Shown here: positions 12,757-28,029 of the stretch, in pieces
How the letters are laid out: each line of letters starts with the position of its first letter
Numbering within the stretch: the first letter of the stretch is position 1
From: Planctomycetota bacterium
Lineage (GTDB): Bacteria; Planctomycetota; Phycisphaerae; SM23-33
NCBI GenBank assembly: GCA_030635145.1
Contig: DAOVZK010000001.1
Coordinates: 23,381-87,380 of the forward strand
Length of the DNA: 64,000 bases
Direction of reading: 5' to 3'
Program-made: the position numbers and the translations under genes
The notes under the pieces: generated by a model
Told to the model about the DNA's origin: nothing
Seen by the model: only the letters and a program-made list of their open reading frames with translations
Database searches by the model: none

Positions 12757-13368
12757 TTGTCCAATACCGCTACGATTTTGATTGAATCTGGGAATGAGAT
12801 GTTTGACGCAACCAGGACAACCAGGGTATTGGGTGCGTTGCTGGTTTCGATGACTCTCGGGGCATTGCTGCTTATGCTCATGGAATCGGATCCCCCGCGC
12901 CCAAGTCAGAGCGACCGTGCTTCAATAGCAGGGAGCGTTCTCGGTCAGCATGCTTCGGTTTCACGCAAGTGGCGCCGCGTAATCATTCACTCCGCAGCAG
13001 ATTCAAACAGTAATCTTCCGGCTCGATGCCATTTCGTTATCGAGCCCAAGGCAGACTCGCAGGGTTTGGGCGTTCGCTCTACGGAATTGTGGAAGCGGCA
13101 GAAGCCCGGTTACCACGCACTCGTAGCTGCCGACCGCGACTACAACGCAGACAGCATCGGAATCTGCCTCGTCGGTGACTTCTCGAAGAACCAGCTATCG
13201 CAAGGTCAGTTCGATGCCCTTGTTGCCCTCGTTCGCGATCTGCAACGATCCTGCACCATCGACGGGGACAGCGTTTATCTCTACTCCCAGCTCGACGCAC
13301 AGTCCGGTTCCCCGGGCCGTAATTTCCCCGTTGCCGACTTCGACGCATCACTGCTGCAAGTCAACTGA
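12757..13368 (+). CDS. Putative N-acetylmuramoyl-L-alanine amidase (amidase_2/PGRP-like) with N-terminal membrane anchor
   Basis: VIIHSAAD...H...Y...NADSIGICLVGDF...QFDALVALVRDL resembles the zinc-amidase_2 motif order (H, Y, N..SIGI..G). N-terminal transmembrane helix. The start codon choice is uncertain. Confidence 0.4.
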   Translation: MSNTATILIESGNEMFDATRTTRVLGALLVSMTLGALLLMLMESDPPRPSQSDRASIAGSVLGQHASVSRKWRRVIIHSAADSNSNLPARCHFVIEPKADSQGLGVRSTELWKRQKPGYHALVAADRDYNADSIGICLVGDFSKNQLSQGQFDALVALVRDLQRSCTIDGDSVYLYSQLDAQSGSPGRNFPVADFDASLLQVN

Positions 13369-13639
13369 TCACACCGGCGGCCCTGCTGGGCGCACTGATC
13401 CAACCTCACTTTTTTCCGCCCCTTCATTTGCTGCACGCAATTTCGTTTCACCATTTTGCCTTCCGGGTTTGTGCGCGCGTAAAAAACGACGTAACGAACA
13501 TTTCTTTCGCAAATCTTTTGCAAAAAATATTCGCCACGCCGCGTTTGTTTTTCAATTTTTGCTCTCTGTCATGCCCGACTCGATCGGGCCGGTGCCGTGG
13601 TTGCGGTGTTCGCAACCACGTTTTGTACCACAGTCATTT

Positions 13640-16117
13640 CTACAGCCCTACCGTGCTTCGTCGCATGAGGTCAGCGGCATCGCATTCTCTGCTCGGGGTG
13701 TACCCGTTGAGAGGCAGGATGTATTCGTTGACGGCGTCGAGGAAGTCGGCCGGCTGCGGGAAGAACGCGTCTTCCAATTCGTCGGCTGGGGTAATCCAGT
13801 TGCGGGCACCGATGACAACCGGCGGTGCGTCGAGTTCGTCGAACGCCAGCTGCGTAATCTTCGCCGCCATCGTCTGCACGAAGCTTCCGCGTTCGCACGC
13901 GTCGCTGGCGAGGATAATCTTGCGGGTCTTGGCGACCGATTCGATAACCTTTTCGTAGTTAAACGGCACGATAGAGCGGGCGTCGATAATTTCGCACGAC
14001 AGTCCGAATTTTTCCTGCAGTTCGTCGGCCGCTTCGATTGCACGATACAGCGTCGCACCGATCGTCAGAATCGTCAGGTCGGTTCCTTCGCGACGGATGG
14101 CCGGTTCGCCGAACGGTACTTCGTAGAAGCCTTCGGGTACGCCGCCGGGTTCAAAAATTTCCGGCTGATCGTACAACCGCTGCGACTCGAAGAACATCAC
14201 CGGGTCGGTCGACACGAGCGATGCGTTCAGCAGGCCCTTGGCGTCGTAGGGCGTTGCCGGGAACACAACTTTCAGCCCCGGAATATGTGCCGGAATCGTC
14301 GTCCAGTCTTGCGAGTGCTGTGCCCCGTACTTGCTGCCGACAGAAACGCGGAGCGTCACGGGCATTTTCAAAAGTCCGCCCGACATGCTCTGCCATTTGC
14401 TGAGCTGGTTGAAGATTTCGTCGCCGGCTCGGCCCATAAAGTCACAGTACATCAGCTCGGCCATTACGCGGCCGCCTTCGAGTGCGTATCCGCAAGCGGT
14501 TCCGGCGATGGCGGCTTCGGCGATGGGCGAGTTGAACAGGCGATGATACGGCAGTGCTTCGGTCAAACCGCGATACACCCCAAACGCCCCGCCCCAGTCG
14601 CGGTTTTCTTCACCGTAGGCAACGAGCGTTGGGTCGCGATAAAATGCGTCGAGCGTGGCTTCGAACAGTGCGTCACGCACGACGATGCATTTGCTTTTCG
14701 GCAGCGGTGCGCCGTTGGCGTCCAGGCCGCTTCTGCTACGTTTGGCAAGCTGCTTTACGCGCGGGTTTTCTTCCTTCGTCATCAAAACTTCAGGTTCCCG
14801 CGTGGTGTCCATCGACTCGACTCTCTCGTCGGAGAAGATGATATTTTCCAGCGTATTACCGACGGACTTAATTTCCGGCCGCGGTGAAATTTCGAGATCG
14901 GTTGCCTTCTTGCAGGCCTTGACCATCGTGACGATAATCTGCTGCTGCATCGCGTCGATGTCGCCCTGCGTGCAAACCTTGGCGGCGATCAGCGAGTCGG
15001 CGAAGGTTTTGATCGGGTCGACTTCCTGCCATGCCGAAACTTCTTCCTTCGTGCGATAGCTGCTTGCGTCGGATGGCGAGTGACCGCAGAAACGATACGT
15101 CAGCGTGTCGAGCAAAACCGGCCCGTCGCCGGCTTCGATGATTTTCTTCTTTCGGCCGATACCGTCGATGACGGCAAGCGGGTTGAAACCGTCGAGACGT
15201 TCGGCGTGCATCTGCTCGGGGTTCATTCCCGCACCAATGCGTGCCAGCACGTCGTAGCCCATCGTCTCGCCATCGGTCTGGCCGCCCATGCCGTAGAAGT
15301 TGTTGAAGAAATTCAGAATCAACGGCAGTCCGCCGCGATGTGCTTCGTCCCACAGCTGCTTGTACTGGTCCATCGTCGCGAAGCAAAGCCCTTCCCAAAC
15401 CGGCCCGCAAGCTGCCGACGCGTCGCCGATGTTGCCGATCACGATGCCGGACTTTTTGTTGACGTGTTTGAACAACGCCGCACCGACGGAAATGTCACCC
15501 GACCCCCCGACAATGGCGTTGTTGGGGTAGATTCCGAACGGCGGAAAGAATGCGTGCATCGAACCACCGAAGCCCTTGTTGAACCCAGTCTCACGGCCGA
15601 AGATTTCGGCAAGTGCCCCATAAATCAGATAATCAATCGCCAGCGACTTTGTGTCGCCGTCGGCGTCGGCCTCTACAACTTTCAGGCACGCCCCGCCGAA
15701 GTAATTTTTCATGACGCCCATCAGCGTATCGTCGTCGAGCTTCTGAATCGCCGACAAACCCTTGGCGAGAATCTCACCGTGCGAGCGATGCGAACCGTAG
15801 ATGTGGTCGTCGGTTCCCAGCAGGTACGCTTGCCCGACGGCCGAGGCTTCCTGACCCAGCGACAGGTGGGCCGGGCCGCGGTGATTGTACTCCACCCCGC
15901 CGTAACTTCCGACTTTCTTGATCGAGTCGAGCATCGACTCGAATTCGCGAATAATCATCATGTCACGCTGGATGCGAATGAGGTCTTCTTTGGAAAAACG
16001 ACCCGCCTTGAGTTCGTCACCGACGGTTTTATTGTACTGGTTGACCGGGATCGATTTGAAATCGACCTTACCCGGTTTACGTGCTTCTTTGGGATCAACA
16101 TGTTGCAGCTTAGGCAT
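13640..16117 (-). CDS. 2-oxoacid dehydrogenase E1 component, fused alpha and beta subunits (TPP-dependent)
   Basis: N-terminal half is E1-alpha (YGSHRSHG...[33 protein letters not shown]). C-terminal half is E1-beta ([59 protein letters not shown]). 825 aa total. Confidence 0.8.
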
Positions 16118-16169
16118 CTGAAAAAACTCCTGTGTTCAAAAAACGGTTTTGTGTTCGTTAAAGTTTCGA

Positions 16170-16991
16170 TTAATTCGTCGTTACGTTCGAGGCTTCCTCC
16201 GCGCAGGAGAGATCCTGGTCTTTCGGATAGACGACCTTTATTTGGAGCCCCTTAAGAAAACGCATCCATTCATCCGACGGACGCTGATCGGTAATAATTT
16301 TGGAAATCGCTTCAAACCCATCGATCTTAAACAGTGAGGGGTTGAGAAATTTACTGTGGTCGGCCAGCAGTATGCTTTCGCGCGAGTTGGCGATGGCCTT
16401 GCGGTAAACGTACGCGCTTTCGATGTCATTTGCCGTCGGGCCAAAGTCCATGCTCAATCCGTCAGTGCCAACAAACGCGGTGAACCCGCGCAGCTGATCG
16501 AGGGCAGCAATCGTCATCGGGCCAACCGTGTCCATCCGCTCGGGACGGTACTGCCCCCCGAGCAAAATCACGTTCAGGTCAGCCGACTCTAATTCCAACG
16601 CCAACCGCGCCGAGTTTACGATAATCGAAACCGACCGCTTGGACTGAATGTACGGAGCCATCTGAAAGCAGGTCGTCCCCGAGTCGAGAAAAATCAGATC
16701 CCCGTCGTTAACGCAATCGGCTGCGAGCTGCCCGACGATACGTTTGGCTTCGACATTTCGCATGCCCTTGGAGTGGAAAGAAAAATCACCCTTATGCGGC
16801 AGGGTCGCCCCGCCGTGAACCAGCTCGACTTTACCGTAGCGGGCAAGATCCTGCAAGTCGCGCCGGGCCGTCGCCTCGGATATCTCCAAAGACACCGCCA
16901 TCTCCCGGATGCTCACTCGGCCCAGCCGATAAACATCCGCCAGAATCGCCTGACGCCGTTGTTTTGTTGATTTTCCCATATTTCCAGTCAC
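16170..16991 (-). CDS. DeoR/GlpR-family transcriptional regulator
   Basis: N-terminal HTH RRQAILADVYRLGRVSIREMAVSLEISEATARRDL, then a DeoR C-terminal sugar-phosphate-binding domain. Sits 52 bp upstream of, and co-oriented with, the E1 gene. Confidence 0.8.
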   Translation of the reverse strand: MTGNMGKSTKQRRQAILADVYRLGRVSIREMAVSLEISEATARRDLQDLARYGKVELVHGGATLPHKGDFSFHSKGMRNVEAKRIVGQLAADCVNDGDLIFLDSGTTCFQMAPYIQSKRSVSIIVNSARLALELESADLNVILLGGQYRPERMDTVGPMTIAALDQLRGFTAFVGTDGLSMDFGPTANDIESAYVYRKAIANSRESILLADHSKFLNPSLFKIDGFEAISKIITDQRPSDEWMRFLKGLQIKVVYPKDQDLSCAEEASNVTTN

Positions 16992-17026
16992 CTATACCTA
17001 CCAGTAAACAATATCTTTGCGGATAA

Positions 17027-17103
17027 AGCAATATAAATTAGCAAAAAAATTGCAATATATTGCAACTAATCAACTTGACTTTTGCAAAAAAGTTACTTAT
17101 CCT
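17027..17103. promoter_or_regulatory. Divergent control region: perfect 16-bp palindrome TTGCAATATATTGCAA plus extra TTGCAA/GCAATAT half-sites, overlapping a sigma70-like promoter for the E2 operon
   Basis: Palindrome at 17050-17065. TTGACT (17075-80), then a 17-nt spacer containing TTGCAA, then TATCCT (17098-103). This lies about 55 nt upstream of the E2 ATG at 17161. The deoR start is at 16991 on the other strand. Confidence 0.4.
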
Positions 17104-17160
17104 ACTATACAGAGTAGCAGGGCGATTGTACGCCCTCAAGGCATTAAGCAGGATAAGATT

Positions 17161-18720
17161 ATGTCAACAATAAAGTTACCGCAAAAAGGTAAGGCGATGC
17201 TTTCCGGTACGATTGTGCAATGGTATAAATCCCAAGGCGATTCTGTCGCTGCGGGAGATATCCTTGTAAGGATCGAGGCGGAGGATTCGTTTATCGACAT
17301 TGAGGCCGCGACGGATGGTGTTTTGCAGCAAGTGATTGCTCAGCAAGGTGTTACCGTGGCGGTGAATGAACCAATAGCAGAATTAGGCAGTTCTGACGGG
17401 GCAACCCAGGAGCAGAAACCAATGAGTACTGACGACAAAAAAAATGTAGCAGTTGAGTTACCGCAAGGAGCGGCCGTGATTTTGTTACCGCAGGTTGGTA
17501 ACGATATGGAAGAGGGCACGATTGTCAGCTGGAAGGTCGCCGAGGGCGACGCCATTGAGGTCGGCCAGGTTTTGTACGAGGTTGAAACCGACAAGGCCAG
17601 CATCGAAATCGAAGCCGAAATCCCCGGGCGACTTTCGCGAATCGTCGTTCCCGACGGTGAGTGCACGGAGATCAAAACTCCGGTAGCGTATCTTGGGGAT
17701 GACGATGCGCAGATCGACGCATACATCGCAGCTACGAAAAAGGCTGCCCCCGCCAAGCCGGCCGCTGCTGCACCAGCTCCAGCTCCCGCGCCAAAACCGG
17801 CCCCAGCTGCAAGTCCCGCACCAGCACCAGCTGCTGCTCCGGTTGCAGTTGCACCCACCGCAAACGGGCGAGTAAAGGCGTCACCGGCGGCACGGCGAAT
17901 CGCCGCTCAGCGTGGCGTGAATATCGCGAGCGTTGCAACAGGTAGCGGCCCCGGCGGCCGAATTATTTCCACCGACGTTCCTGCTGCTGCGATGGTATCT
18001 GCGGGTAAACCGCTACCGGCCGCCGCGTTGCCGGTAACCGCGCCGATTGGCGAACCGGCTGTCAGCACGCTGGCCGGAATGCGAAAGGCAATCGCCCGCA
18101 ACCTCACCGCCAGCAAGCAGAACATTCCGCACTTCTACCTGAAGCTGACCGTCGACGCGGGGCCGATGATGAGTTACTATCGCGGCCGAAAGGCGCAGTT
18201 CAAATGCAGCGTCAACGATGTCGTAATCATGGCGTGCGGGAGAGCGATGCACGAGTTTCCCGCGTTCCGCACCCGGCTGGAGAAAGACGGCACGCAACTT
18301 ACCGAATTACCGACCGCCAATGTTGGTATCGCAGTCGGAATCGAAAACGGCCTCGTCGTGCCGGTACTGCAGAGCGTTGATCGCATGACATTCCAGCAGA
18401 TTGCAACCGAAGGACGAGCACTTGTGATGTCGGCCCGCGAAGGAAAAGTGCAGGGCATGGGCACGGGTTCGTTTACGATTACGAATCTCGGGATGTTCGG
18501 CGTTGAAGAATTTTCGGGTATCATCAACCCACCGGAATCGGCGATTCTTGCAGTCGGTGCGGTTCGCGAAGACATGATCGTCGAAAACGGCGCGTTGCGA
18601 ATCGGGCAGGTCTGCTCGATGACCATCAGCTGCGACCATCGAATTGTCGACGGCGTACTGGCGGGTCAGTTTGCGGCAAGGCTAAAAGAACTCCTCGAAA
18701 ATCCACAGGTAATGGGATAA
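17161..18720 (+). CDS. Dihydrolipoamide acyltransferase E2 (two lipoyl domains, E3-binding domain, catalytic domain)
   Basis: Two lipoyl-lysine motifs (VETDKASIEIEA and the first-domain equivalent). Ala/Pro-rich linkers. PSBD segment ASPAARRIAAQRGVNIASV. Catalytic TISCDHRIVDGVLAGQF. Start chosen at MSTIKLPQKG, with AGGA 8 nt upstream. Confidence 0.85.
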   Translation: MSTIKLPQKGKAMLSGTIVQWYKSQGDSVAAGDILVRIEAEDSFIDIEAATDGVLQQVIAQQGVTVAVNEPIAELGSSDGATQEQKPMSTDDKKNVAVELPQGAAVILLPQVGNDMEEGTIVSWKVAEGDAIEVGQVLYEVETDKASIEIEAEIPGRLSRIVVPDGECTEIKTPVAYLGDDDAQIDAYIAATKKAAPAKPAAAAPAPAPAPKPAPAASPAPAPAAAPVAVAPTANGRVKASPAARRIAAQRGVNIASVATGSGPGGRIISTDVPAAAMVSAGKPLPAAALPVTAPIGEPAVSTLAGMRKAIARNLTASKQNIPHFYLKLTVDAGPMMSYYRGRKAQFKCSVNDVVIMACGRAMHEFPAFRTRLEKDGTQLTELPTANVGIAVGIENGLVVPVLQSVDRMTFQQIATEGRALVMSAREGKVQGMGTGSFTITNLGMFGVEEFSGIINPPESAILAVGAVREDMIVENGALRIGQVCSMTISCDHRIVDGVLAGQFAARLKELLENPQVMG

Positions 18721-18790
18721 GGAAAGAAAATACGAAAAGCGAATTTCGAAATACTAAACAGTTTCGGTTTTCGATATTAGGATTTAAAAC

Positions 18791-20203
18791 ATGGAACATT
18801 ACAACGTAGCGGTTTTGGGTGCAGGCCCCGGTGGATACGTCGCCGCCTTGAAGGCAGCACAAATGGGCGCGAAAGTTGCCGTCATCGAAAAGCACCACCT
18901 CGGTGGAACCTGCCTGAATTACGGATGCATTCCGAGCAAGGCGCTGCTGGCGTCGGCGGAGCTGTTGCACAAAATTGAACATGCCGCTTCGCTGGGCGTG
19001 GGTGTCAGCGGCAAAGCGTCGTTTGATTGGGCTGCGATTCAGAAGCGAAAAGATAAGGTGCTGGCCGGGCTGCGCGGCGGTATTGGCGGGTTGTTCAAGG
19101 CTCGCAAAGTTACGCTGTACAACGGTACGGGCGTGCTGGACGGGCAGGGCAAAATCAAAATCGCGACCGATAGCGGCGACGAACAAATCTCCGCCGACAA
19201 CATCATCCTCGCCGTGGGCTCCGTGCCCGTGCGAATTCCCACCTGGCCGAGCGACCCCAACCTGGTCTGCACCAGCGACGAAGCACTGCACTGGGACGAG
19301 CTGCCCAAGCGATTGCTGATCGTCGGCGGTGGTGTCATTGGTTGCGAGTTCGCCTGCATGATGCACGCCTACGGTGTGGAAGTTTCGGTCGTCGAAATGC
19401 TGCCAGGGTTGCTACCAGAAATGGAAGCCGACCTCGGAATGGGGCTGGCGAAAGATTTCACCAAACGCGGCATCGCGATTCATGTAGACACGAAAGTCGA
19501 AGGCATCGTCGAGGCGGGCGGGGCATTGACGGCGACGCTGTCGGGCGGAGTTTCGCTTGACGTTGACAAGGTACTCGTTGCCGTTGGGCGTCGCCCTGCA
19601 ACGGCGGACATCGGGCTGGAAACTATCGGGATCGAAACCGACCGCGGATTCGTGCGTGTCAACGACCGCATGGAAACGGGCGTAACGGGAGTGTACTGCA
19701 TCGGTGATGCCAACGGGCGATGCTTGCTGGCACACGCGGCCAGCGCTCAGGGAATCGCAGCCGTGGAAAATGCACTCGGACACACGAAAGATTTGACGGC
19801 CCCGATCCCCGGTGCCGTTTACACGTTCCCGGAAATTGGCGGAGTGGGTCTTACGACGCAGCAGGCACACGACCAAAACATTCCGATCGCCGTCGGTAAT
19901 TTTCCGCTCGCGTTTTTGGGTAAGGCGATGGCTGTCGGCGAGACGGACGGTTTCGTCAAGGTCATCAAGCATCGCGAAACGGGCGAGTTGCTGGGCGTGC
20001 ACATGCTCGGGCACAACGCTACCGAGTGCATCGCTGCAGCCGGAGCTATGCTTCACCAAAAAGCGAGCGTCGAAGATTTGGCGGAAGTGGTTTTCGCGCA
20101 CCCGACCATCAGCGAGGCAATCAAAGAGTCGGCCGAGGATGCCTTGGGAATGGCGCTGCATTTGCCCCCGCGAAAAATCCATCGCGTAAAGGCGGGGCAG
20201 TAA
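18791..20203 (+). CDS. lpdA: Dihydrolipoyl dehydrogenase E3
   Basis: FAD-binding GAGPGGY, redox-disulfide GGTCLNYGCIPSK, NAD-binding GGGVIGCEFA, and a C-terminal HPT..E interface motif. Confidence 0.9.
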   Translation: MEHYNVAVLGAGPGGYVAALKAAQMGAKVAVIEKHHLGGTCLNYGCIPSKALLASAELLHKIEHAASLGVGVSGKASFDWAAIQKRKDKVLAGLRGGIGGLFKARKVTLYNGTGVLDGQGKIKIATDSGDEQISADNIILAVGSVPVRIPTWPSDPNLVCTSDEALHWDELPKRLLIVGGGVIGCEFACMMHAYGVEVSVVEMLPGLLPEMEADLGMGLAKDFTKRGIAIHVDTKVEGIVEAGGALTATLSGGVSLDVDKVLVAVGRRPATADIGLETIGIETDRGFVRVNDRMETGVTGVYCIGDANGRCLLAHAASAQGIAAVENALGHTKDLTAPIPGAVYTFPEIGGVGLTTQQAHDQNIPIAVGNFPLAFLGKAMAVGETDGFVKVIKHRETGELLGVHMLGHNATECIAAAGAMLHQKASVEDLAEVVFAHPTISEAIKESAEDALGMALHLPPRKIHRVKAGQ

Positions 20204-20239
20204 CGATTAACAGTCGGCCGAGCGGGTAGTAGTTGAAAG

Positions 20240-21541
20240 GTGTTTATGATGGACAACGTTACCGATGCTGTTGCGTCGATTCGCGAAATTGGAAGTGTCG
20301 ACGAACTCAAGGCCCGCAGCGGGCAGGTCGCCTTTGCGCAACGCCCGAAGTTTAACTCGCACATTCATCTGCCACCGAACTTTTCGGCATTTGAAACTGT
20401 CGCCCAGGCTGTGACGCTGGCTGACGAGCAAAATGTTCGCGTCGTCGGAGTCAGCAACTATTACGACTACAGCGTCTACAACGAATTCGTTTCACTCACC
20501 GCGCCGCGCGGAATTTTTCCAATTTTCGGGTTAGAGGTTATCTCGCTGGTGGACGAACTCGTCGCAGCTGGGGTGAAAATCAACGATCCGGGAAATCCCG
20601 GGCGAATGTACATGTGCGGAAAAGGCATCACGAAGTTTGCAAACCCCTCACCGCGCGGCACTGAGCTTCTTGAGACGATCCGTAACCGCGACGAATCGCG
20701 AATGGCGGAAATGACCGACAAGGTCGCCGCACTCTTCTCCGCCGCCGGTGTCAATACAAAACTCACCGCACCCGATATCGTCACCCGCGTTATGAAACGC
20801 CACTCAAGCCCACGCGAAATCATTACGCTCCAGGAACGCCACATCGCCCAAGCCTTTCAAGAGGTTCTTTTCAAAATTGTTCCAGACGTTAATGAGCGTC
20901 ATGGGGTTTTGCAAAAACTTTTCGGGGCAGAATCGAAATCCGCAACAGATGCGGTTGGTGTGCAGGGCGAGATTCGTTCGCACTTGATGAAGGCCGGCAA
21001 GGCAGCGTTTGTGACCGAAACGTTTTTGAAATTTCCCGAAGCCCGCGAATTGATTTTGCAGCTGGGCGGAATTCCCTGCTATCCGATCCTCGCCGACGGT
21101 GCCGACCCGATCTGCGAATACGAAACCCCCACTAGCAAACTCGTGGAGAATCTTCGCGGTAACGGTTTGCAGATGGCCGAGCTTATCCCCATCCGCAACC
21201 AACCCGAAGTACTCACCGAATACGCCAAAACTCTCCGCGCCGCCGGGGTCGTCGTCGTTGGCGGAACCGAACACAACACGCTCGACTTAATCGGCATTGA
21301 ACCGACCTGCGTTGGCGCAGCAGCGGTGCCGGAAGATGTTAAGGATATCTTTTTCGAGGGCGCGTGCGTGGCGGCGGGGCATCAGTTTCTTACCGCGCAC
21401 GGACACCCGGGCTTCGTCGATGCCGACGGAAAACCAAACACCCAATACGAAACAACCGAAGAACGAATCGACGCGTTTGTCAAACTCGGCGCCGCCGTCA
21501 TCAACCGATACTTCGAAATCAATGTTGAAACCAAAAAATAG
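20240..21541 (+). CDS. Hypothetical metal-dependent hydrolase, PHP-domain-like (tentative)
   Basis: N-terminal NSHIHLPPN (HxH), later GTEHNT and acidic or His residues spaced as in PHP/amidohydrolase TIM barrels. No confident family assignment by eye. Starts 36 nt after the lpdA stop on the same strand. Confidence 0.3.
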   Translation: MFMMDNVTDAVASIREIGSVDELKARSGQVAFAQRPKFNSHIHLPPNFSAFETVAQAVTLADEQNVRVVGVSNYYDYSVYNEFVSLTAPRGIFPIFGLEVISLVDELVAAGVKINDPGNPGRMYMCGKGITKFANPSPRGTELLETIRNRDESRMAEMTDKVAALFSAAGVNTKLTAPDIVTRVMKRHSSPREIITLQERHIAQAFQEVLFKIVPDVNERHGVLQKLFGAESKSATDAVGVQGEIRSHLMKAGKAAFVTETFLKFPEARELILQLGGIPCYPILADGADPICEYETPTSKLVENLRGNGLQMAELIPIRNQPEVLTEYAKTLRAAGVVVVGGTEHNTLDLIGIEPTCVGAAAVPEDVKDIFFEGACVAAGHQFLTAHGHPGFVDADGKPNTQYETTEERIDAFVKLGAAVINRYFEINVETKK

Positions 21542-21548
21542 CAGTGAA

Positions 21549-22661
21549 ATGGAGAGATTTCTCATGGCCGTTACAGAATCCAAAAAGCTGATCAGTCTTA
21601 TCGCTCCGGCTTTGCGTTTGTTGATAGATGCTGAAAATCCAAGGGTGATCCGGTTCTCGGATTCTTCCGAAGAAGCCTCCGAAAGTGCTTTGACATTTGA
21701 ACCACCCGCCGACGTGTCGATAGAACAAATAGTGCAAAAATTATCGCTCGCCATTCAGAACGCCAGTGGTTCAGTTCCGGCGGTGATGGTTCCGGGCCTG
21801 GGCGTTTTTTCTGTTTGGGACAAACCCATCACCTCCGGCCGAGCCGCCGGTAAAGTCGCCGTTGTAACAGGTGCCGCCCAAGGTTTTGGCCTGGAGATTG
21901 CCCAACACCTTATCGCCCAGGGAGCGTATATTGCACTTACGGACATCAACAAACAAGGTGCAATAGACGCCGCGGAAAAGCTGTGCAAAACTTTTGGGCA
22001 GGACAGGGCTATAGGGCTGGGGATAAACGTAACCGATGGAGCGTCGATTGGCGAGGCTTTACATCAGGTGGTTTGCAGGTATGGCGGGCTGGACGTTTTT
22101 ATTTCCAACGCTGGCGTACTCAAAGCTGAAAGCGTTAAAACTCAACCCGAAAAAGATTTTGATTTTGTCACATCCGTCAACTACAAGGGTTATTTTCTAT
22201 GTGTTCAGAAGATTGCGCCAATACTCGCGGTTCAGCATTTGGCTTGTGCGGATTATCGTAGCGACATTATCCAGATCAACTCCAAAAGCGGGCTGGTCGG
22301 CAGCAATCGCAACGCCGCCTACGCCGGAAGCAAATTCGGCGGGCTTGGATTGACGCAATCGTTCGCCCTCGAGCTGATCGAAGATGGAATAAAAGTAAAC
22401 GCCGTCTGCCCCGGAAACTTTTTCGACGGGCCACTCTGGTCCGACCCCGAAAACGGATTGTTCGTACAGTATCTGCGAACCGGCAAAATTCCCGACGCCA
22501 AAACCATCGAGGACGTTCGCAAGGGTTACGAAGCCAAAGTACCCATGGGCCGCGGATGCACGACGCAAGACGTGATGCAGGCGGTGTTTTACCTGATGGA
22601 CCAAAAATACGAAACCGGCCAGGCAATGCCCGTCACCGGCGGACAGGTCATGCTGAGTTAA
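21549..22661 (+). CDS. Short-chain dehydrogenase/reductase (SDR) with ~95-aa N-terminal extension
   Basis: GKVAVVTGAAQGFGLEIAQHL (TGxxxGxG), NAG, and the catalytic YAGSKFGGLGLTQSFALEL (YxxxK). Start chosen at MERFLMAV. The longer ORF beginning at 21297 overlaps the upstream gene in another frame. The start is 7 nt after the upstream stop. Confidence 0.7.
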   Translation: MERFLMAVTESKKLISLIAPALRLLIDAENPRVIRFSDSSEEASESALTFEPPADVSIEQIVQKLSLAIQNASGSVPAVMVPGLGVFSVWDKPITSGRAAGKVAVVTGAAQGFGLEIAQHLIAQGAYIALTDINKQGAIDAAEKLCKTFGQDRAIGLGINVTDGASIGEALHQVVCRYGGLDVFISNAGVLKAESVKTQPEKDFDFVTSVNYKGYFLCVQKIAPILAVQHLACADYRSDIIQINSKSGLVGSNRNAAYAGSKFGGLGLTQSFALELIEDGIKVNAVCPGNFFDGPLWSDPENGLFVQYLRTGKIPDAKTIEDVRKGYEAKVPMGRGCTTQDVMQAVFYLMDQKYETGQAMPVTGGQVMLS

Positions 22662-22698
22662 TCAAGATTAGAACGAATCACCATAGAAAGGTACAAGA

Positions 22699-24396
22699 AT
22701 GACAGCAATTCCCAACACGCAGTACGCAGTTCAACTCGTCGGGCCTGACGAGCTGAAGCTCAACACATCCAAGCCCGTCGATCTCCCGACCAAGCATCAC
22801 ATTCTTTTGAAAATCGAAGCCGTCGGGCTTTGCTTTTCGGACCTGAAATTGCTGCATCAATTTTCTGAGCATCCCCGCAAACTGAATATCCAGGACGGCA
22901 TTGCTACGGACATTCTGGCTGAGCTGACGAGCTACGTACCTGGCGAACAGCCCACCGTGCCGGGGCATGAGGCCTGCGTTCGCGTTGTTGCTGTCGGGTC
23001 GAAAGTTACCGAGCACAAAGTCGGCGACCGTTATCTGGTGCAGGCCGACTGGCGGCAAATGGTCACGGCCGCGAGCAATGGTGCCTTTGGATATTGCTTC
23101 GAGGGCGGGTTGCAGGAGTACGTTATCGTTGACGAGCGGATCGTTATCGACGAGGAAACGGGCAGCCATTTTCTGATTCCCGCAGCCGAGGATTTTTCGG
23201 CATCGGCGATTGCTCTTATCGAACCGTGGGGCTGCGTTGAATGCTCTTACGTTACGCCCGAACGTAACACCATTAAGCATGACGGAAAATTGCTGGTCGT
23301 TGCCGAGGCTGGGCGAACGGTCGAGTCGCTCGATGACTGCTACGACGCTGCTGGTCGCCCGGCGGAAATCACCGCGATTTACGGTACTAAAGAGCAGGCT
23401 GAAAGTTTCACCTTCCAGGAAACCGGCGGGGTGTTCCACGAACCCGAACCCATCGACGCCATCGCCTCGCTGCCGGACGAAACCTACGACGACATCGTTT
23501 ACTTCGGCGCACGGGCGAAGGTTATCGAGGCACTTAACAGCAAGCTCGCCCGCGGTGGTATCATCAATATCGTGTTGGGCGGTGCGAAAATCGGACAGCT
23601 GGTAAACGTTGGTGTCGGGCGAACGCATTACGGGCTGACGCGATGGATCGGAACGACCACCGACAATGCCGCCGAGTCTTATAAGGTTATCCCGAATGAC
23701 GGTGAAATTCGCGCGAACGACAAAGTTGTCGTCATCGGTGCCGGTGGGCCGATGGGCCAGATGCACGTAATCCGAAATCTCTGCTCGGGCATCGAAGGCG
23801 TTGAAATCATCGGCACCGACTTTGACGATGAGCGATTAGAGTCGTTGCGCAGCAAGGCTGAACCGATCTCGCAAAGCAAGGGTTTGAAGTTTCGGTTAGT
23901 CAACCCGCAAACAACCCCGCTGACAGATGCGTTTGACTATTACGCGTTGATGGCTCCGCTGGGTGTGCTCGTTGCCGATGCTATCCAGACCGGCGCGACC
24001 GGTGCGATGATCAATATCTTCGCGGGGATTCCCGCCACGACGAATCACGACCTTGACCTCGATACATACATCAGCAAGGGCATGTTCATGTTCGGCACGA
24101 GCGGGTCGACCATCGACGATATTCTTATCGTTCGCGACAAGGTCGAATCCGCCCAGCTCGACACCGACTGCTCCGTCGATGCCGTGTCCGGAATGGCGGG
24201 CGCCCTGGCCGGAATCGATGCCGTCAAAGACCGAACCTGCGGGGGCAAAATTGTGGTTTACCCACAGCTGCACGATATGGAAATGATTTCGCTGAAGGAT
24301 ATCGGCGAGAAATATCCCAACGTCGCAGCGAAACTGTCGCACGGAATGTGGACGAAGCAAGCGGAAAAGCAGTTGCTCATCGACGCGGTGAAGTAA
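22699..24396 (+). CDS. Medium-chain (Zn-dependent alcohol dehydrogenase-like) dehydrogenase with a large inserted or second nucleotide-binding region (565 aa)
   Basis: GroES-like N-terminal domain with a GHEACVRVVAVGSKV...VGDRY... zinc/catalytic pattern. A Rossmann GxGxxG (VVVIGAGGPMGQ) occurs only at about aa 340, after an extra segment of roughly 150 aa. Confidence 0.55.
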   Translation: MTAIPNTQYAVQLVGPDELKLNTSKPVDLPTKHHILLKIEAVGLCFSDLKLLHQFSEHPRKLNIQDGIATDILAELTSYVPGEQPTVPGHEACVRVVAVGSKVTEHKVGDRYLVQADWRQMVTAASNGAFGYCFEGGLQEYVIVDERIVIDEETGSHFLIPAAEDFSASAIALIEPWGCVECSYVTPERNTIKHDGKLLVVAEAGRTVESLDDCYDAAGRPAEITAIYGTKEQAESFTFQETGGVFHEPEPIDAIASLPDETYDDIVYFGARAKVIEALNSKLARGGIINIVLGGAKIGQLVNVGVGRTHYGLTRWIGTTTDNAAESYKVIPNDGEIRANDKVVVIGAGGPMGQMHVIRNLCSGIEGVEIIGTDFDDERLESLRSKAEPISQSKGLKFRLVNPQTTPLTDAFDYYALMAPLGVLVADAIQTGATGAMINIFAGIPATTNHDLDLDTYISKGMFMFGTSGSTIDDILIVRDKVESAQLDTDCSVDAVSGMAGALAGIDAVKDRTCGGKIVVYPQLHDMEMISLKDIGEKYPNVAAKLSHGMWTKQAEKQLLIDAVK

Positions 24397-24434
24397 CACC
24401 ACACCCGATAGATATTTGACAGTATAGGAAAAAT

Positions 24435-25703
24435 ATGAAAAAGACGTTTGTTGGTTTCGGGTTCGGGCCTATTCAGAGTGGGCTGTTTTTGTACGAGGCG
24501 TGGAAGTCGGGCAATTTTTCCCGCTACGTTATCGCTGAGGTCAATCCGCAGCTGGTAAGTGCGGTCAGCCATAACGGCGGGGCCTACGAGCTGAACATCG
24601 CATCGCCAACGGGCATCGCGCATCAGCGCATCGAAGGCGTTGAGCTGTACAACCCCGCGGATGCTGAATCGCGCGCAAAAATCATCGACGCCATCAGCGA
24701 ATCCGACGAAATCGCAACGTCGCTGCCAAGCGTGAAGTTTTACGACATGGGCGAAGAAACCAGCGTCGTAAAAACCCTCGCCGAAGGGCTAAAGCAGCGC
24801 GATGCGTCCAAACCCGTGATCGTCTACGCGTCGGAAAATAATAACCACGCCGCCGAGCTTCTTACCGAAGCACTCGCGAAATACACCGCACCCGAAGTAC
24901 TCAAAAATGTGCAGGTGCTCAACACCGTTATCGGAAAAATGAGCGGCGTGATCTCCGATACCGACACGATCGAGAAAATGCAGCTGCATACGATCACCCC
25001 CGAAACACCGCAGGCGATTCTCGTTGAGGAATTCAATCGCATTCTCATTTCCAAAATCGAACTCGACGGATTTGCTCGCGGGATCGACTGCTTCGAGGAA
25101 AAAACCGACCTGCTGCCGTTCGAGGAGGCGAAACTTTTCGGGCATAACGCAATCCACTCGCTTATCGCATATCTCGCCGACCACCAAAACTACCTCACCA
25201 TCGCCGACGCCGGTAAGGACGGAAAAATTATGACCATCGCGCGGAACGCATTCATCGACGAGTGCGGTTCTGCCCTCATCAAGCGATATTTCGATCTCGG
25301 TGATTCGCTGTTTACCCCCGAAGGTTTTGACGAATACGCCACCGACCTTCTTGCCCGAATGACAAATCCGAATCTGCACGACCTCGTCGAACGTGTCGGG
25401 CGTGATCATCTCCGCAAGCTGGGATACGACGACCGCCTGTTCGGGACGATGCGGATCGCATTTGCCAACGACATCACTCCGGTGAACCTCGCCTTGGGCG
25501 CAGCCGCCGGTATCATATCAATGATCACCCGCCGCAACGAACTTCCAACGATTCCCGAAACCCTTCCCCAAACCGCAGACGACCTGACCCGCGAAAATCT
25601 CGAGGCGCTACTCCTGGAAATCTGGCCAGACGATGTGGACAAAACTACCGCAGCGCCACTAATCGATCTGACCTGGGAAGCACTGCATGTTGTCAAAAAG
25701 TAA
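24435..25703 (+). CDS. Mannitol-dehydrogenase-family (long-chain polyol dehydrogenase) protein
   Basis: N-terminus FVGFGFGPIQSGLF matches the FGAGNIGRGF dinucleotide fold start of MtlD/UxuB/UxaB-type enzymes. Length 422 aa. Confidence 0.45.
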   Translation: MKKTFVGFGFGPIQSGLFLYEAWKSGNFSRYVIAEVNPQLVSAVSHNGGAYELNIASPTGIAHQRIEGVELYNPADAESRAKIIDAISESDEIATSLPSVKFYDMGEETSVVKTLAEGLKQRDASKPVIVYASENNNHAAELLTEALAKYTAPEVLKNVQVLNTVIGKMSGVISDTDTIEKMQLHTITPETPQAILVEEFNRILISKIELDGFARGIDCFEEKTDLLPFEEAKLFGHNAIHSLIAYLADHQNYLTIADAGKDGKIMTIARNAFIDECGSALIKRYFDLGDSLFTPEGFDEYATDLLARMTNPNLHDLVERVGRDHLRKLGYDDRLFGTMRIAFANDITPVNLALGAAAGIISMITRRNELPTIPETLPQTADDLTRENLEALLLEIWPDDVDKTTAAPLIDLTWEALHVVKK

Positions 25704-25967
25704 CTTTTACTGAATGATTTACCGAATATTTTACCGAACAAGGGGCTGTCTTCCGATAAAATAGGGGCTTTGCTGTACAAGTTTGAAAAATGCTTCCCAG
25801 CAGGGGCTTGAAAAATAAGCTTACTTGGCATAGAATGAATGTGATGGTTTAGTAATATCGAGATGTACCGAGGCACGAGCTTTAAACGTCGAAAATCTTC
25901 CGGATGCTTCCTTTTTTTGGAATCATACTTTTTATAACGATTATACTTGGATTCGGAAGGACTTACG

Positions 25968-27116
25968 ATGAACGGCAAGCGTGTTAAGTGCCCAAGCTGC
26001 GCGACGGTTTTGGGCGTTCCGGGGCAGTTTAAGGGCACTCTTTGTTTGTGTGCAAATTGCCAAACGAAATTCACTATTCCTGCGCTCTCAGAAGCAGATA
26101 TTCTCGACCTTATCGGCAAGAAGAGAAACGCCGACTCTGTCGTTGCCGGTGCGATTGAGGCCGACGAACCACAACCCGTCGCCGCCGACTTCGTACCCGA
26201 AACCGTTGCGGCCGAAGTGGCGATGGATACCATCGACGGTTTTCCGACCGGGATAGATGGGTTCTATCTGCTGCGAATCGACCGGCATGGTACGCTGTTT
26301 GAATTTCCCGCGTCTATACTAACCGGGACGAGTCTCCGCGGTGCCATGCCGCGACGTTGTGTGCGTTGTGGAGAAACGCGGCACATCCAGTATCATCTGG
26401 TGATCTATTCGCACCATATGACCGAGTCGGCATCGCTCGAATCGCAATACGCTCCGTCCCGAAAAGAACTTTCCGAGCGAGACGTTATGACGAGGTCTGC
26501 TGACGAAATTCTCCCGATGCTCCCGGAAGTACGCAAAATTCCTGCTCCGGCGAACCTTCCCATGCCGTACTGGGTTTGCGATATGTGCTCCCCATCAAAT
26601 ATGGTTTTTGCCCAAAACCGGATCACCAGCAGCGGAGAAAGCACCTGCCGCCTGCAAATTCAGCGAATCTGGCGTGCCGAGGAATTTCTCGTCGCTGCCG
26701 GGGGTAAAGATTCTCGCGCGCATAAGGAAATCCTCAAAGAAATCGAAGGTAACGCCGAACAACCCTGGGACACTCTCCCCGGTGCCGTTCAGCAGCGCTT
26801 GCAGCAATGGTATCATCCGCATAAGGGCGAGCGGTTTGTTGCGTATATTCCCGACCGTTCGCGGGTTCGCACACAAGATGGTATGGGTGGGGTGGTGCTG
26901 TCGAATCGTAGGTTGGTTCACAATTCCCTGCGGCGATACCATGAGGTAGAAAAGGGCGAGCAGCTCGATATGGACTTCGCCATGAGCGCCGGTAAAATGA
27001 CACTGCATATCAAAACCCCGTCGTGGGAAGTCAAGCAGATGGTCGTCGACAAGCACGGGCTTGAACGGCTGCGCCGCGCAATGTGGCAGGAAAACTTCCC
27101 GGCTGTCTGGCATTGA
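25968..27116 (+). CDS. Hypothetical protein with N-terminal zinc-ribbon and two further CxxC pairs
   Basis: VKCPSCATV...CLCANCQT (zinc ribbon), RCVRCGE, CDMCSP. No other recognisable domain. Start taken at the ATG at 25968, 8 nt after GGAAGGA. The ORF track begins at a TTG at 25947. Confidence 0.5.
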   Translation: MNGKRVKCPSCATVLGVPGQFKGTLCLCANCQTKFTIPALSEADILDLIGKKRNADSVVAGAIEADEPQPVAADFVPETVAAEVAMDTIDGFPTGIDGFYLLRIDRHGTLFEFPASILTGTSLRGAMPRRCVRCGETRHIQYHLVIYSHHMTESASLESQYAPSRKELSERDVMTRSADEILPMLPEVRKIPAPANLPMPYWVCDMCSPSNMVFAQNRITSSGESTCRLQIQRIWRAEEFLVAAGGKDSRAHKEILKEIEGNAEQPWDTLPGAVQQRLQQWYHPHKGERFVAYIPDRSRVRTQDGMGGVVLSNRRLVHNSLRRYHEVEKGEQLDMDFAMSAGKMTLHIKTPSWEVKQMVVDKHGLERLRRAMWQENFPAVWH

Positions 27117-27225
27117 GACTCGCTGGCGACGCATTTTTCTTCCCGCGCAACTGCAAATAGTTTATAAGTAATCCACGCGTGGTTTGGTGCGCGCGGAAAC
27201 CAAAAATTTTACGGAGTCTTGAGAA

Positions 27226-28029
27226 ATGACAAAGATATTGATTGTTGGTGCGGGCGGACGAATGGGACGGCGGATCGCTGCTTTGGCGATAGAGTCGGAA
27301 CTGTTCGATGTGGTCGGGGCGGTGGAATTTGCCGGCAGCGACGTAATCGGAAAAGACATCGGCGAGCTTGCTGGTGTCGGTACGTTCGGGGTGGAAGTCA
27401 CGGACAATATCGATCATCTCTCCGCCGACAATTGGCCGGACGTGGCGATTGATTTTTCGCTGCCGGAAGGCACGATGCACTGGGCACCGATCTGCCGCCA
27501 AAAAGGCATCGCCATGGTTATCGGCACGACTGGGCTTACGGAGTCGCAGCAGGCCGAGATCGCAGATTCGTCCAGCTCCGTACCGATCGTTTTTGCCGGT
27601 AACTATTCCATGGGCATCAACCTGCTGACGAAGATCATCGCCCAGGCTGCCAAAACTCTCGGGGAAGATTACGACGTCGAAGTTTCCGAGGTGCATCATC
27701 GGTTTAAGAAGGATGCGCCCAGCGGCACGGCGATAATGCTCGCCAAGGCAGCTTGCGAAGGTCTTGGTAGCGAGTACGGAGAGGTCGTCACGCACGGCCG
27801 AGGGGGGCATCAACCGCGCAAGCCCGGTGAGATCGGAATGCACGCGCTGCGACTCGGGGATACCGTCGGTGAGCATTCGGTGTATTTCGGGAATCTCGGG
27901 GAGACGATTACGTTTTCGCACTCGGCCCACACGCGAGATACTTTTGTTCGCGGTGCGCTGCGGGCAATAACATGGGTCGTCGGTAAAAAACCCGGGCTCT
28001 ACAATATGTGCGACGTGCTGGGACTGTAA
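27226..28029 (+). CDS. dapB: 4-hydroxy-tetrahydrodipicolinate reductase
   Basis: ILIVGAGGRMGRRI (NAD(P) binding) and the DapB signature EVHHRFKKDAPSGTA. Confidence 0.9.
   Translation: MTKILIVGAGGRMGRRIAALAIESELFDVVGAVEFAGSDVIGKDIGELAGVGTFGVEVTDNIDHLSADNWPDVAIDFSLPEGTMHWAPICRQKGIAMVIGTTGLTESQQAEIADSSSSVPIVFAGNYSMGINLLTKIIAQAAKTLGEDYDVEVSEVHHRFKKDAPSGTAIMLAKAACEGLGSEYGEVVTHGRGGHQPRKPGEIGMHALRLGDTVGEHSVYFGNLGETITFSHSAHTRDTFVRGALRAITWVVGKKPGLYNMCDVLGL

Follow-up and report, generated by a model that had tools for sequence, protein, structure and literature searches.

Among the described systems closest to the locus considered here is the RhaEW/RhaR rhamnose pathway of Bacillus subtilis and Chloroflexus aurantiacus (Rodionova et al. 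2013, PMC3870299). Our locus comprises eight long open reading frames (ORFs) at positions 13640-25703 of a 64-kb stretch of contig DAOVZK010000001.1 from a Planctomycetota bacterium (the window, meaning the whole stretch that was analysed). It encodes a DeoR-family regulator and the fused E1 alpha-beta component of a thiamine pyrophosphate (TPP)-dependent dehydrogenase (E1ab), both divergent from genes for an E2 acyltransferase, an E3 dihydrolipoyl dehydrogenase, a PHP-fold protein, a short-chain dehydrogenase/reductase (SDR), a long medium-chain dehydrogenase/reductase (MDR) and a mannitol-dehydrogenase-like oxidoreductase. With the RhaEW/RhaR pathway it shares the DeoR-family regulator, the fusion of a class II aldolase to an SDR (in most of its relatives) and the nearness of rhaA or rhaI, rhaB and rhamnose transporters (in relatives). 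The known operons, however, have no E1/E2/E3, PHP-fold protein or long MDR, while the window copy has no aldolase domain and the fusion in relatives scores 337 bits against a RhaEW cutoff of 568.

In the acetoin/2,3-butanediol system (BdhA and AcoABCL), an MDR secondary-alcohol dehydrogenase stands beside a TPP-dependent E1, a lipoyl E2 and an E3 leading to acetyl-CoA, as here, and BdhA feeds the complex in a way analogous to the dehydrogenase step that we propose below; in contrast, E1 is here one fused chain, 32-35% identical to the split pairs, and the context is one of deoxy-sugar phosphates rather than acetoin. In the L-sorbose pathway encoded by the sor operon of Klebsiella and Escherichia coli, SorE is an MDR L-sorbose-1-phosphate reductase and SorD an SDR glucitol-6-phosphate dehydrogenase. 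This pair, which shifts a carbonyl along a hexose phosphate, resembles the MDR and the sorbitol-6-phosphate dehydrogenase (S6PDH)-like SDR of our locus, but homologues of our MDR are called 'L-sorbose 1-phosphate reductase' in only two JGI automatic annotations. The pyruvate dehydrogenase (PDH) complex with heterotetrameric E1 has in common with our complex the TPP motif, the catalytic His residues, the E2 DHRxxDG motif and an E3 equivalog, and differs in that E1 is here fused, E1 and E2 miss the PDH cutoffs, the first lipoyl domain is degenerate, the regulator is a sugar-type DeoR protein and the genes lie in a sugar operon. Finally, a bacterial microcompartment (pvm) cluster of Planctomycete-Verrucomicrobia serves growth on fucose and rhamnose and has the DeoR-family regulator PvmA (Erbilgin et al. 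2014, as cited in PMC11958385 and PMC8857213). As these citing papers portray it, the pvm cluster matches our locus in phyla, sugars and regulator family; relative to that portrayal, our locus has no shell proteins and no CoA-acylating aldehyde dehydrogenase, and lactaldehyde would be handled differently or avoided.

Our searches of the full-text literature found no description of the cluster, of the fused E1 or of a deoxy-sugar-cleaving complex of the acetoin type. The locus is a real and widely conserved variant of deoxy-sugar catabolism that has apparently not been described before; in it, a RhaR/RhaEW-like core is combined with three enzyme families that are poorly characterised and with a TPP/lipoamide complex of its own. 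We tentatively favour a model in which it is a conserved, DeoR-repressed catabolic module that takes 6-deoxyhexoses (L-rhamnose, L-fucose) to acetyl-CoA via this dedicated complex by a cleavage resembling that of acetoin dehydrogenase, and there is a meaningful chance that the cluster hides a new reaction.

Conservation and sugar context of the cluster

A scan of one genome per species returned at least 582 loci, 80 of which were searched by tblastn with the eight window proteins; 42 of these were adequately flanked. The complete core of E1ab, DeoR, E2, E3, PHP-fold protein, SDR and MDR is present in 28 of the 42, and the loci span Planctomycetota (Phycisphaerae, Pirellulales, Planctomycetaceae), Verrucomicrobiota, Sumerlaeota, Fibrobacteria and Acidobacteriota. 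The median identity of E1ab is 72%, that of SDR 71% and that of the other members 54-66%. DeoR is syntenic with E1ab in 41 loci, and three high-identity E1ab homologues from a protein search have the same context in all three contigs inspected (3/3). The mannitol-dehydrogenase-like gene is accessory (15/80 related loci). Some Verrucomicrobiota (L035, L051, L064) have all genes on one strand, in the order DeoR-E2-E3-E1ab-PHP-fold-SDR-MDR or PHP-fold-RhaEW-MDR-E2-E3-E1ab, yet still together; because these clusters are rearranged but intact, the linkage appears functional and not merely inherited. The view that the genes form one conserved functional unit is supported by this linkage across phyla, even in rearranged orders, and by the lack of a terminator between lpdA and the four genes downstream of it in the window.

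Although the initial annotation regarded the substrate as unknown, relatives place the cluster within L-rhamnose and L-fucose utilisation loci. RhaA (L-rhamnose isomerase) is encoded in five loci (L067, L060, L062, L047, L015) and rhamnulokinase-like FGGY kinases in ten. In L067, RhaA (713 versus 572 bits) is joined by a stand-alone RhaE-type aldolase and a rhamnulokinase-like kinase; in L015, by RhaT; and in L062, rhaA occurs with a PL11 rhamnogalacturonan lyase, rhaB and an aldolase. In L064, a single operon contains a sugar ABC transporter, a kinase, RhaI (586 versus 531), the PHP-fold gene, the fusion, MDR, E2, E3 and E1ab, while L012 carries an alpha-L-fucosidase, an FGGY kinase, an L-fucose isomerase and an MFS transporter. 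Because rha and fuc genes thus flank the cluster in relatives, we assign the module to 6-deoxyhexose catabolism. In L047, which also has RhaA, acetate kinase and Pta follow immediately after MDR, and for this reason acetyl-CoA is likely to be the product of the module. Among the SDR-only loci with rha or fuc genes, six of nine have no aldolase gene within 10 kb on either side. A HAD-family hydrolase gene follows the cluster in two unrelated loci (L064 20425-21081, L084 3445-4044) and may encode a pathway-linked sugar-phosphate phosphatase.

Fused E1 genes 53-54% identical to E1ab from end to end were found by tblastn on plasmids of the cultured Rhizobiales Rhizobium, Agrobacterium and Pleomorphomonas. 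On pRL8 of Rhizobium johnstonii 3841 (L089, record 72.6-100 kb; E1ab 54% identity), the operon encodes a 78-aa lipoyl protein, an acetyltransferase of the AcoC type (alpha/beta-hydrolase), a PfkB sugar kinase and a SorC-type regulator, and it adjoins an ABC transporter with a RhaS-like binding protein, a FucU-like mutarotase and a psicose-epimerase-like isomerase. The neighbours on A. tumefaciens pAt15955 (L090) are lipA, a mannitol-dehydrogenase-family enzyme, a sugar ABC transporter and a xylulokinase, and on Pleomorphomonas pSM30-1 (L091) a xylulokinase gene is divergent from E1ab. Bacteria such as these Rhizobiales are known to have a separate housekeeping PDH. Judged by its neighbours, the fused E1ab clade is seen three times independently in a sugar context, and in two of these cases its partners are of the acetoin type. 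We found no characterisation of the Rhizobiales fused E1 in the literature; the only mention found near the pRL8 gene concerns the neighbouring 'fucose operon protein' pRL80090, which matters in the rhizosphere. These Rhizobiales clusters are experimentally tractable relatives of the system.

Components of the locus and their control

The eight ORFs and their divergent layout (Table 1) have the coordinates and strands given in the initial annotation. Its description of short gaps between the plus-strand genes also holds, except that two of them, given there as 36 and 7 nt, become 42 and 22 nt with the starts at 20246 and 21564 in the public gene calls. No terminator-like site was found in the four short intergenic gaps of the plus-strand genes, and a comparison with Rfam revealed neither a riboswitch nor a leader element.

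Table 1. Genes and control region of the locus (positions in the window)
Feature	Position	Strand	Basis and remarks
Fused E1 alpha-beta, TPP-dependent dehydrogenase component (E1ab), 825 aa	13640..16117	-	Pfam E1_dh + Transket_pyr + Transketolase_C
DeoR-family regulator	16170..16991	-	HTH_DeoR + DeoRC; public gene calls: 269 aa, ATG near 16979
Divergent control region	17027..17103	+	(A/T)GCAA repeats, palindrome, sigma-70-like promoter
E2 acyltransferase, 519 aa	17161..18720	+	Two Biotin_lipoyl stretches, E3_binding, 2-oxoacid_dh
E3 dihydrolipoyl dehydrogenase, 470 aa	18791..20203	+	TIGR01350, 510.5 bits (cutoff 408.8)
PHP-fold protein with large helical insertion, no described family, 431 aa (433-aa ORF)	20246..21541	+	Structure model
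RhaW-like SDR, 365 aa	21564..22661	+	adh_short
Long zinc-type MDR dehydrogenase, 565 aa	22699..24396	+	Pfam: ADH_N only
Mannitol-1-phosphate-5-dehydrogenase-like oxidoreductase, 422 aa	24435..25703	+	Mannitol_dh + Mannitol_dh_C

The products of the first genes have the parts of a 2-oxoacid or acetoin dehydrogenase complex, namely an E1 of TPP fold, a lipoylatable E2 with an E3-binding domain and a DHRxxDG motif, and an E3 that passes its curated equivalog cutoff. The E1ab translation contains the TPP-type motif GNIGDAS...NFFNNFYG, and profile searches show it to be homologous to transketolase and DXS. E1, E2 and E3 each have a PDH family as their top profile match; E1 and E2 miss every PDH equivalog cutoff (E1 alpha 183 versus 394 bits; beta 229 versus 321 and 220 versus 454; E2 351 versus 445). 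E1ab homologues within the cluster are 59-77% identical across phyla, while identity to canonical split E1 pairs on plasmids is 32-35%, for Aco-type and Pdh-type pairs alike. These missed cutoffs, and the 54% identity to the fusions of sugar clusters versus 32-35% to split pairs, are in line with the initial interpretation of the E1 fusion, and we retain as favoured reading the idea that a dedicated complex cleaves a 2-oxo or acetoin-like product.

E2 consists of a pseudo-lipoyl domain, a true lipoyl domain, the E3-binding domain and a catalytic domain with DHRIVDG. The two lipoyl domains ascribed to it are thus present as two lipoyl-type stretches, but the first has Asp in place of the lipoyl-lysine (RIEAEDSFIDIEA) and the second is the sole one of the two to hold the DKA motif (VETDKASIEIEA). 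Among the 30 aligned family members with a residue at that position (E2 genes of L003-L082), DKA is absent from domain 1 in about 22, and domain 2 always has it. By its sequence, the N-terminal domain of E2 (17161-17400) looks like a conserved pseudo-lipoyl domain.

The SDR finds its closest characterised family in S6PDH (232 bits; next family 151; PDB 5o3z). Against TIGR02632 (RhaEW) it scores 145 bits and a full-length relative fusion 337 bits, so that neither reaches the equivalog cutoff of 568. In most relatives the gene after the PHP-fold gene encodes a 683-aa fusion of Aldolase_II and adh_short, which in L001 and L002 carries the aldolase zinc-histidine motif HSH...NHG. The window SDR aligns to the C-terminal part of this fusion, from about residue 239; the aldolase domain is absent, and the N-terminal 95 aa or so are two short linker segments retained from the fusion. 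What had been called an 'extended SDR' is the dehydrogenase portion, resembling RhaW, of a fusion between a class II aldolase and an SDR. This SDR-only architecture of about 365 aa recurs in many lineages. An assembly artefact was considered and set aside, given that recurrence and the same gene structure on independent contigs. The closest relative found, L086 (PHP-fold protein 79% identical), however keeps the aldolase N-terminus (L086 3425-3697) after the PHP-fold gene, and the SDR domain of the window stands closer to the fused forms, at 75-76%, than it does to the remaining SDR-only ones, at 57-71%. Because of these two relationships, the comparison suggests that the aldolase domain has been lost recurrently at the same domain boundaries.

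The MDR has invariant zinc ligands C45, H90 and E91 and an invariant GAGGPMG stretch (G347-A-G-G-P-M-G353), together with an extra alpha/beta domain inserted at about residues 190-335 that is atypical for zinc-type MDRs. Profiles of characterised MDRs gave no significant match (best 33 bits). In Foldseek, its structure model (pLDDT 88) matched carbonyl reductase, 2R,3R-butanediol dehydrogenase, threonine dehydrogenase and sorbitol dehydrogenase best, with target-normalised TM of 0.75-0.79. For the mannitol-dehydrogenase-like protein, which has the K-x4-N-x2-H catalytic motif (KLFGHNAIH), the top NCBIfam match is mannitol-1-phosphate 5-dehydrogenase (M1PDH), at 117.5 bits versus a cutoff of 356 (PDB 3h2z). 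A role in polyol biosynthesis by M1PDH and a phosphatase was set aside in view of the catabolic neighbours and the ackA-pta linkage.

Pfam and NCBIfam gave no match to the 433-aa ORF of the PHP-fold protein, and a profile search against PDB sequences gave a marginal match to the PHP region of PolC (E 0.11). Its AlphaFold model (pLDDT 92.7) matches PHP phosphoesterases best in Foldseek (3e0f, 2yb1, 9etk; E about 1e-9, probability 1.0). The earlier label 'PHP-like' is thus right as to fold, the distorted (beta/alpha)7 barrel of the PHP superfamily, on the strength of a confident model and the Foldseek matches, although profile HMMs see no such relationship. Invariant residues include H39, H41, E97, D284, E342, H343 and H379, and N71, Y279 and K126 stand at positions expected for canonical His ligands, as read from strand order in the alignment and model; by this reading, some of the metal ligands usual in PHP proteins seem to have given way to other residues. 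A helical insertion of about 125 aa is rich in invariant Arg, Lys and Gln. With TrpH/YciV-type PHP phosphoesterases (RNase AM, the pAp phosphatase Cv1693) the protein shares the fold (target-normalised TM about 0.7) and an N-terminal HxH, but it differs from them in its 12-15% identity, the missing Pfam PHP match, the insertion and the apparent replacement of His/Asp ligands by Asn, Tyr or Glu. The support extends to the fold, not to the dephosphorylating step once assigned to the protein. We also set aside a PDH-phosphatase-like regulatory role, as there is no linked kinase and the gene occurs without the complex.

The PHP-fold protein is 100% identical to a hypothetical protein from a Phycisphaerae MAG, and its more than 2000 homologues at about 55-60% identity are nearly all named 'hypothetical'. 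In Armatimonadota/Chthonomonadales (L010, L014, L023, L028, L033, L042, L049, L052, L079) the gene is solitary, with no E1/E2/E3, SDR or MDR nearby. No recurrent neighbours of this stand-alone gene were found in the Armatimonadota loci; adjacency to GalT is seen in one locus only, L052, where the gene comes after that for galactose-1-phosphate uridylyltransferase. The protein may have a function independent of the cluster. At L083 4485-5790, in a 4.9-Mb genome, the place of the PHP-fold gene is taken by a pair of short ORFs, of 186 and 234 aa and neither with a Pfam match, which may be a split or decayed copy.

The palindrome, the TTGCAA half-sites and the overlapping promoter that had been reported between the divergent units were all found at the locus. 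The 16-bp palindrome TTGCAATATATTGCAA (17050-17065) is built from two adjacent self-complementary TTGCAA copies and is its own sole match in the window even at one mismatch (chance expectation 0.25); with a third TTGCAA at 17082, three of the 24 copies in 64 kb lie inside 38 bp. The repeats, which can be described as (A/T)GCAA units spaced by about one helical turn, overlap the sigma-70-like promoter TTGACT-17-TATCCT (17075-17103). In related loci, a -35-like GCTTGA/CTTGAC box is kept in 29 of 38 intergenic regions, and short lineage-specific repeats (TGCAA, TGATT, TGACG and similar) flank and follow it, again about one helical turn apart. Because the predicted operators overlap the promoter, DeoR would act as a repressor, most likely of both divergent transcription units, by binding to the TGCAA repeats over the E2 promoter.

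The regulator matches PF08220 (HTH_DeoR, N-terminal) at 46 bits and PF00455 (DeoRC, the C-terminal sensor) at 147 bits; its top NCBIfam matches, GlpR, AgaR and SrlR, are all under cutoff, and the FucR equivalog cutoff is likewise missed. The effector of B. subtilis RhaR is L-rhamnulose-1-phosphate, and that of E. coli FucR is L-fuculose-1-phosphate. By analogy with these two regulators, the effector of our DeoR is probably a ketose phosphate such as L-rhamnulose-1-phosphate or L-fuculose-1-phosphate, which would release the repressor from the DNA, and we keep sugar-phosphate sensing, as first proposed, as the favoured reading.

On the far side of E1ab, a strong GC-rich hairpin of 11 pairs followed by a T-run (13596-13620) lies between the E1ab end (13640, -) and a convergent amidase-like gene (12757-13368, +). 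This hairpin is likely to be the terminator of the plus-strand amidase-like gene and possibly works in both directions. Elsewhere in the window there is one ORF of 2392 aa (51623-58801, -), and further long ORFs have no Pfam match, e.g. 31997-33934, 25947-27116 and 27031-27930. Long ORFs of this kind are typical of Planctomycetota.

Possible routes from deoxy-sugar to acetyl-CoA

In the model that we tentatively favour, a deoxy-sugar phosphate, or a C3 fragment thereof, would be converted to acetyl-CoA by the fused E1ab together with E2 and E3. The S6PDH-like SDR, the long MDR and, where present, the M1PDH-like enzyme would place a carbonyl beside the terminal methyl group, yielding an acetoin-like CH3-CO-CHOH- unit, i.e. 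a 1-deoxy-2-ketose phosphate. E1ab would then cleave this unit as acetoin dehydrogenase cleaves acetoin, with the acetyl group passing to lipoyl-E2 and on to CoA and a shortened aldose phosphate being freed, and the PHP-fold protein would act on a phosphorylated or anionic intermediate. We prefer this route because it gives all three dehydrogenases roles that match their nearest relatives, because the fused E1ab clade is sugar-linked and has AcoC-type partners in hosts with a PDH of their own, and because most of the SDR-only copies linked to rha or fuc genes have no nearby aldolase. Moreover, C4 would become the aldehyde carbon at cleavage, so that derivatives of L-rhamnulose and those of L-fuculose would lead to the same product, which also speaks for the route. 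A last reason is that RhaEW requires NAD+ even for the release of dihydroxyacetone phosphate (DHAP) (PMC3870299), which is compatible with an SDR that acts on the sugar phosphate itself. Spelled out as a lactaldehyde-free route, in which MDR and the S6PDH- or M1PDH-like enzyme would reduce and re-oxidise a 6-deoxyketohexose-1-phosphate to a 1-deoxy-2-ketohexose-6-phosphate and E1ab-E2-E3 would carry out an oxidative reversal of a 1-deoxy-D-xylulose-5-phosphate (DXP)-synthase-like reaction to acetyl-CoA and tetrose-4-phosphate, the scheme is unlikely in this precise form; within it, the class II aldolase-like domain might serve as an epimerase of the AraD type.

Several observations weigh against acetoin-like cleavage of a deoxy-sugar phosphate. 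The substrate of E1 is suggested solely by gene context, and a search of the 64-kb window found no rhaA, rhaB, fucI or aldolase gene, the link to deoxyhexoses coming from the relatives. E1, E2 and E3 have the ordinary catalytic motifs of pyruvate-type complexes, with PDH families as their top profiles; the Foldseek ranking of the MDR is almost flat; and the PHP-fold protein, also found solitary in Armatimonadota, has a role that the model leaves unexplained. Of the 36 loci having SDR, 22 keep a class II aldolase domain and, within it, the zinc histidines, and a separate RhaE-type aldolase is encoded in L060, L062 and L067, both of which suit a route via DHAP and lactaldehyde better. In such a conventional lower rhamnose/fucose route, which we regard as somewhat unlikely, an aldolase (the fused RhaE domain or an unlinked gene product) would yield DHAP and L-lactaldehyde, SDR would oxidise the latter to L-lactate, MDR or another enzyme would form pyruvate from lactate, or from lactaldehyde via methylglyoxal, and E1ab-E2-E3 would be a dedicated PDH. 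The presence of the aldolase domain in most cluster copies, the PDH profiles and the acetyltransferase motif of E2 agree with this, and the ackA-pta neighbours suit acetyl-CoA from either source equally. RhaEW is known from experiment to be both an aldolase of L-rhamnulose-1-phosphate and a dehydrogenase of L-lactaldehyde, giving DHAP and L-lactate, and lactate dehydrogenase genes occur in some RhaR regulons (PMC3870299). The conventional route, however, has no role for the PHP-fold and M1PDH-like proteins, and it sits poorly with an SDR that scores 232 bits against S6PDH but 145 bits against the RhaW part of TIGR02632, and with a fusion at 337 versus 568. We know of no MDR that is a lactate dehydrogenase. 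Furthermore, the nearest cultured E1ab homologues lie in sugar clusters with AcoC-type partners and without lactate or pyruvate enzymes, and several rha- or fuc-linked copies have no aldolase nearby.

The homology of E1ab to transketolase and DXS brings in a third route, in which E1ab would cut an unmodified 2-ketose phosphate (L-rhamnulose-1-phosphate or L-fuculose-1-phosphate; xylulose-5-phosphate in Rhizobiales) at C2-C3 in the manner of transketolase or phosphoketolase, lipoyl-E2 would receive the C2 unit in the form of glycolyl or, following elimination, of acetyl, and the dehydrogenases would then process a deoxy-aldose. The pRL8 cluster, where no dehydrogenase precedes E1 (it has only the transporter, mutarotase, epimerase/isomerase, kinase, E1ab, lipoyl protein and AcoC-like protein), fits this route, as do the bona fide xylulokinases beside E1ab in Pleomorphomonas and Agrobacterium. 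We nevertheless consider it improbable: the route is purely inferential, such cleavage is to our knowledge without precedent in the E1 family, the conserved E3 of the Planctomycetes-Verrucomicrobia-Chlamydiae (PVC) cluster implies a redox cycle, and three dehydrogenases acting on a 4-deoxytetrose make no evident pathway logic. Finally, with its ordinary PDH-like domains and full E3 equivalog, E1ab-E2-E3 might be the housekeeping pyruvate dehydrogenase, placed by chance beside an unrelated sugar-dehydrogenase operon. This is highly improbable, because the linkage to the PHP-fold protein, SDR and MDR survives across phyla and rearrangements, a sugar-type DeoR gene always accompanies E1ab, and all three inspected contigs with high-identity E1ab homologues show the same context.

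Implications for deoxy-sugar degradation and the fused E1 clade

Rhamnose and fucose are major parts of algal and plant polysaccharides, of which Planctomycetota and Verrucomicrobiota are key degraders, and in the known route of these bacteria a microcompartment contains the toxic lactaldehyde. The cluster may be a compartment-free alternative that takes methyl pentoses to acetyl-CoA. Even on the conventional reading, it provides a pathway context for four widespread protein families that are now 'hypothetical' or mis-named. If it is true that E1ab cleaves a sugar phosphate, this would widen the reaction scope of the 2-oxoacid dehydrogenase family and give metabolic engineering a new enzyme that conserves carbon. 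In a broader view, the fused E1ab clade of PVC phyla and Rhizobiales plasmids would then constitute a new class of TPP enzymes that depend on lipoamide and cleave sugar phosphates.

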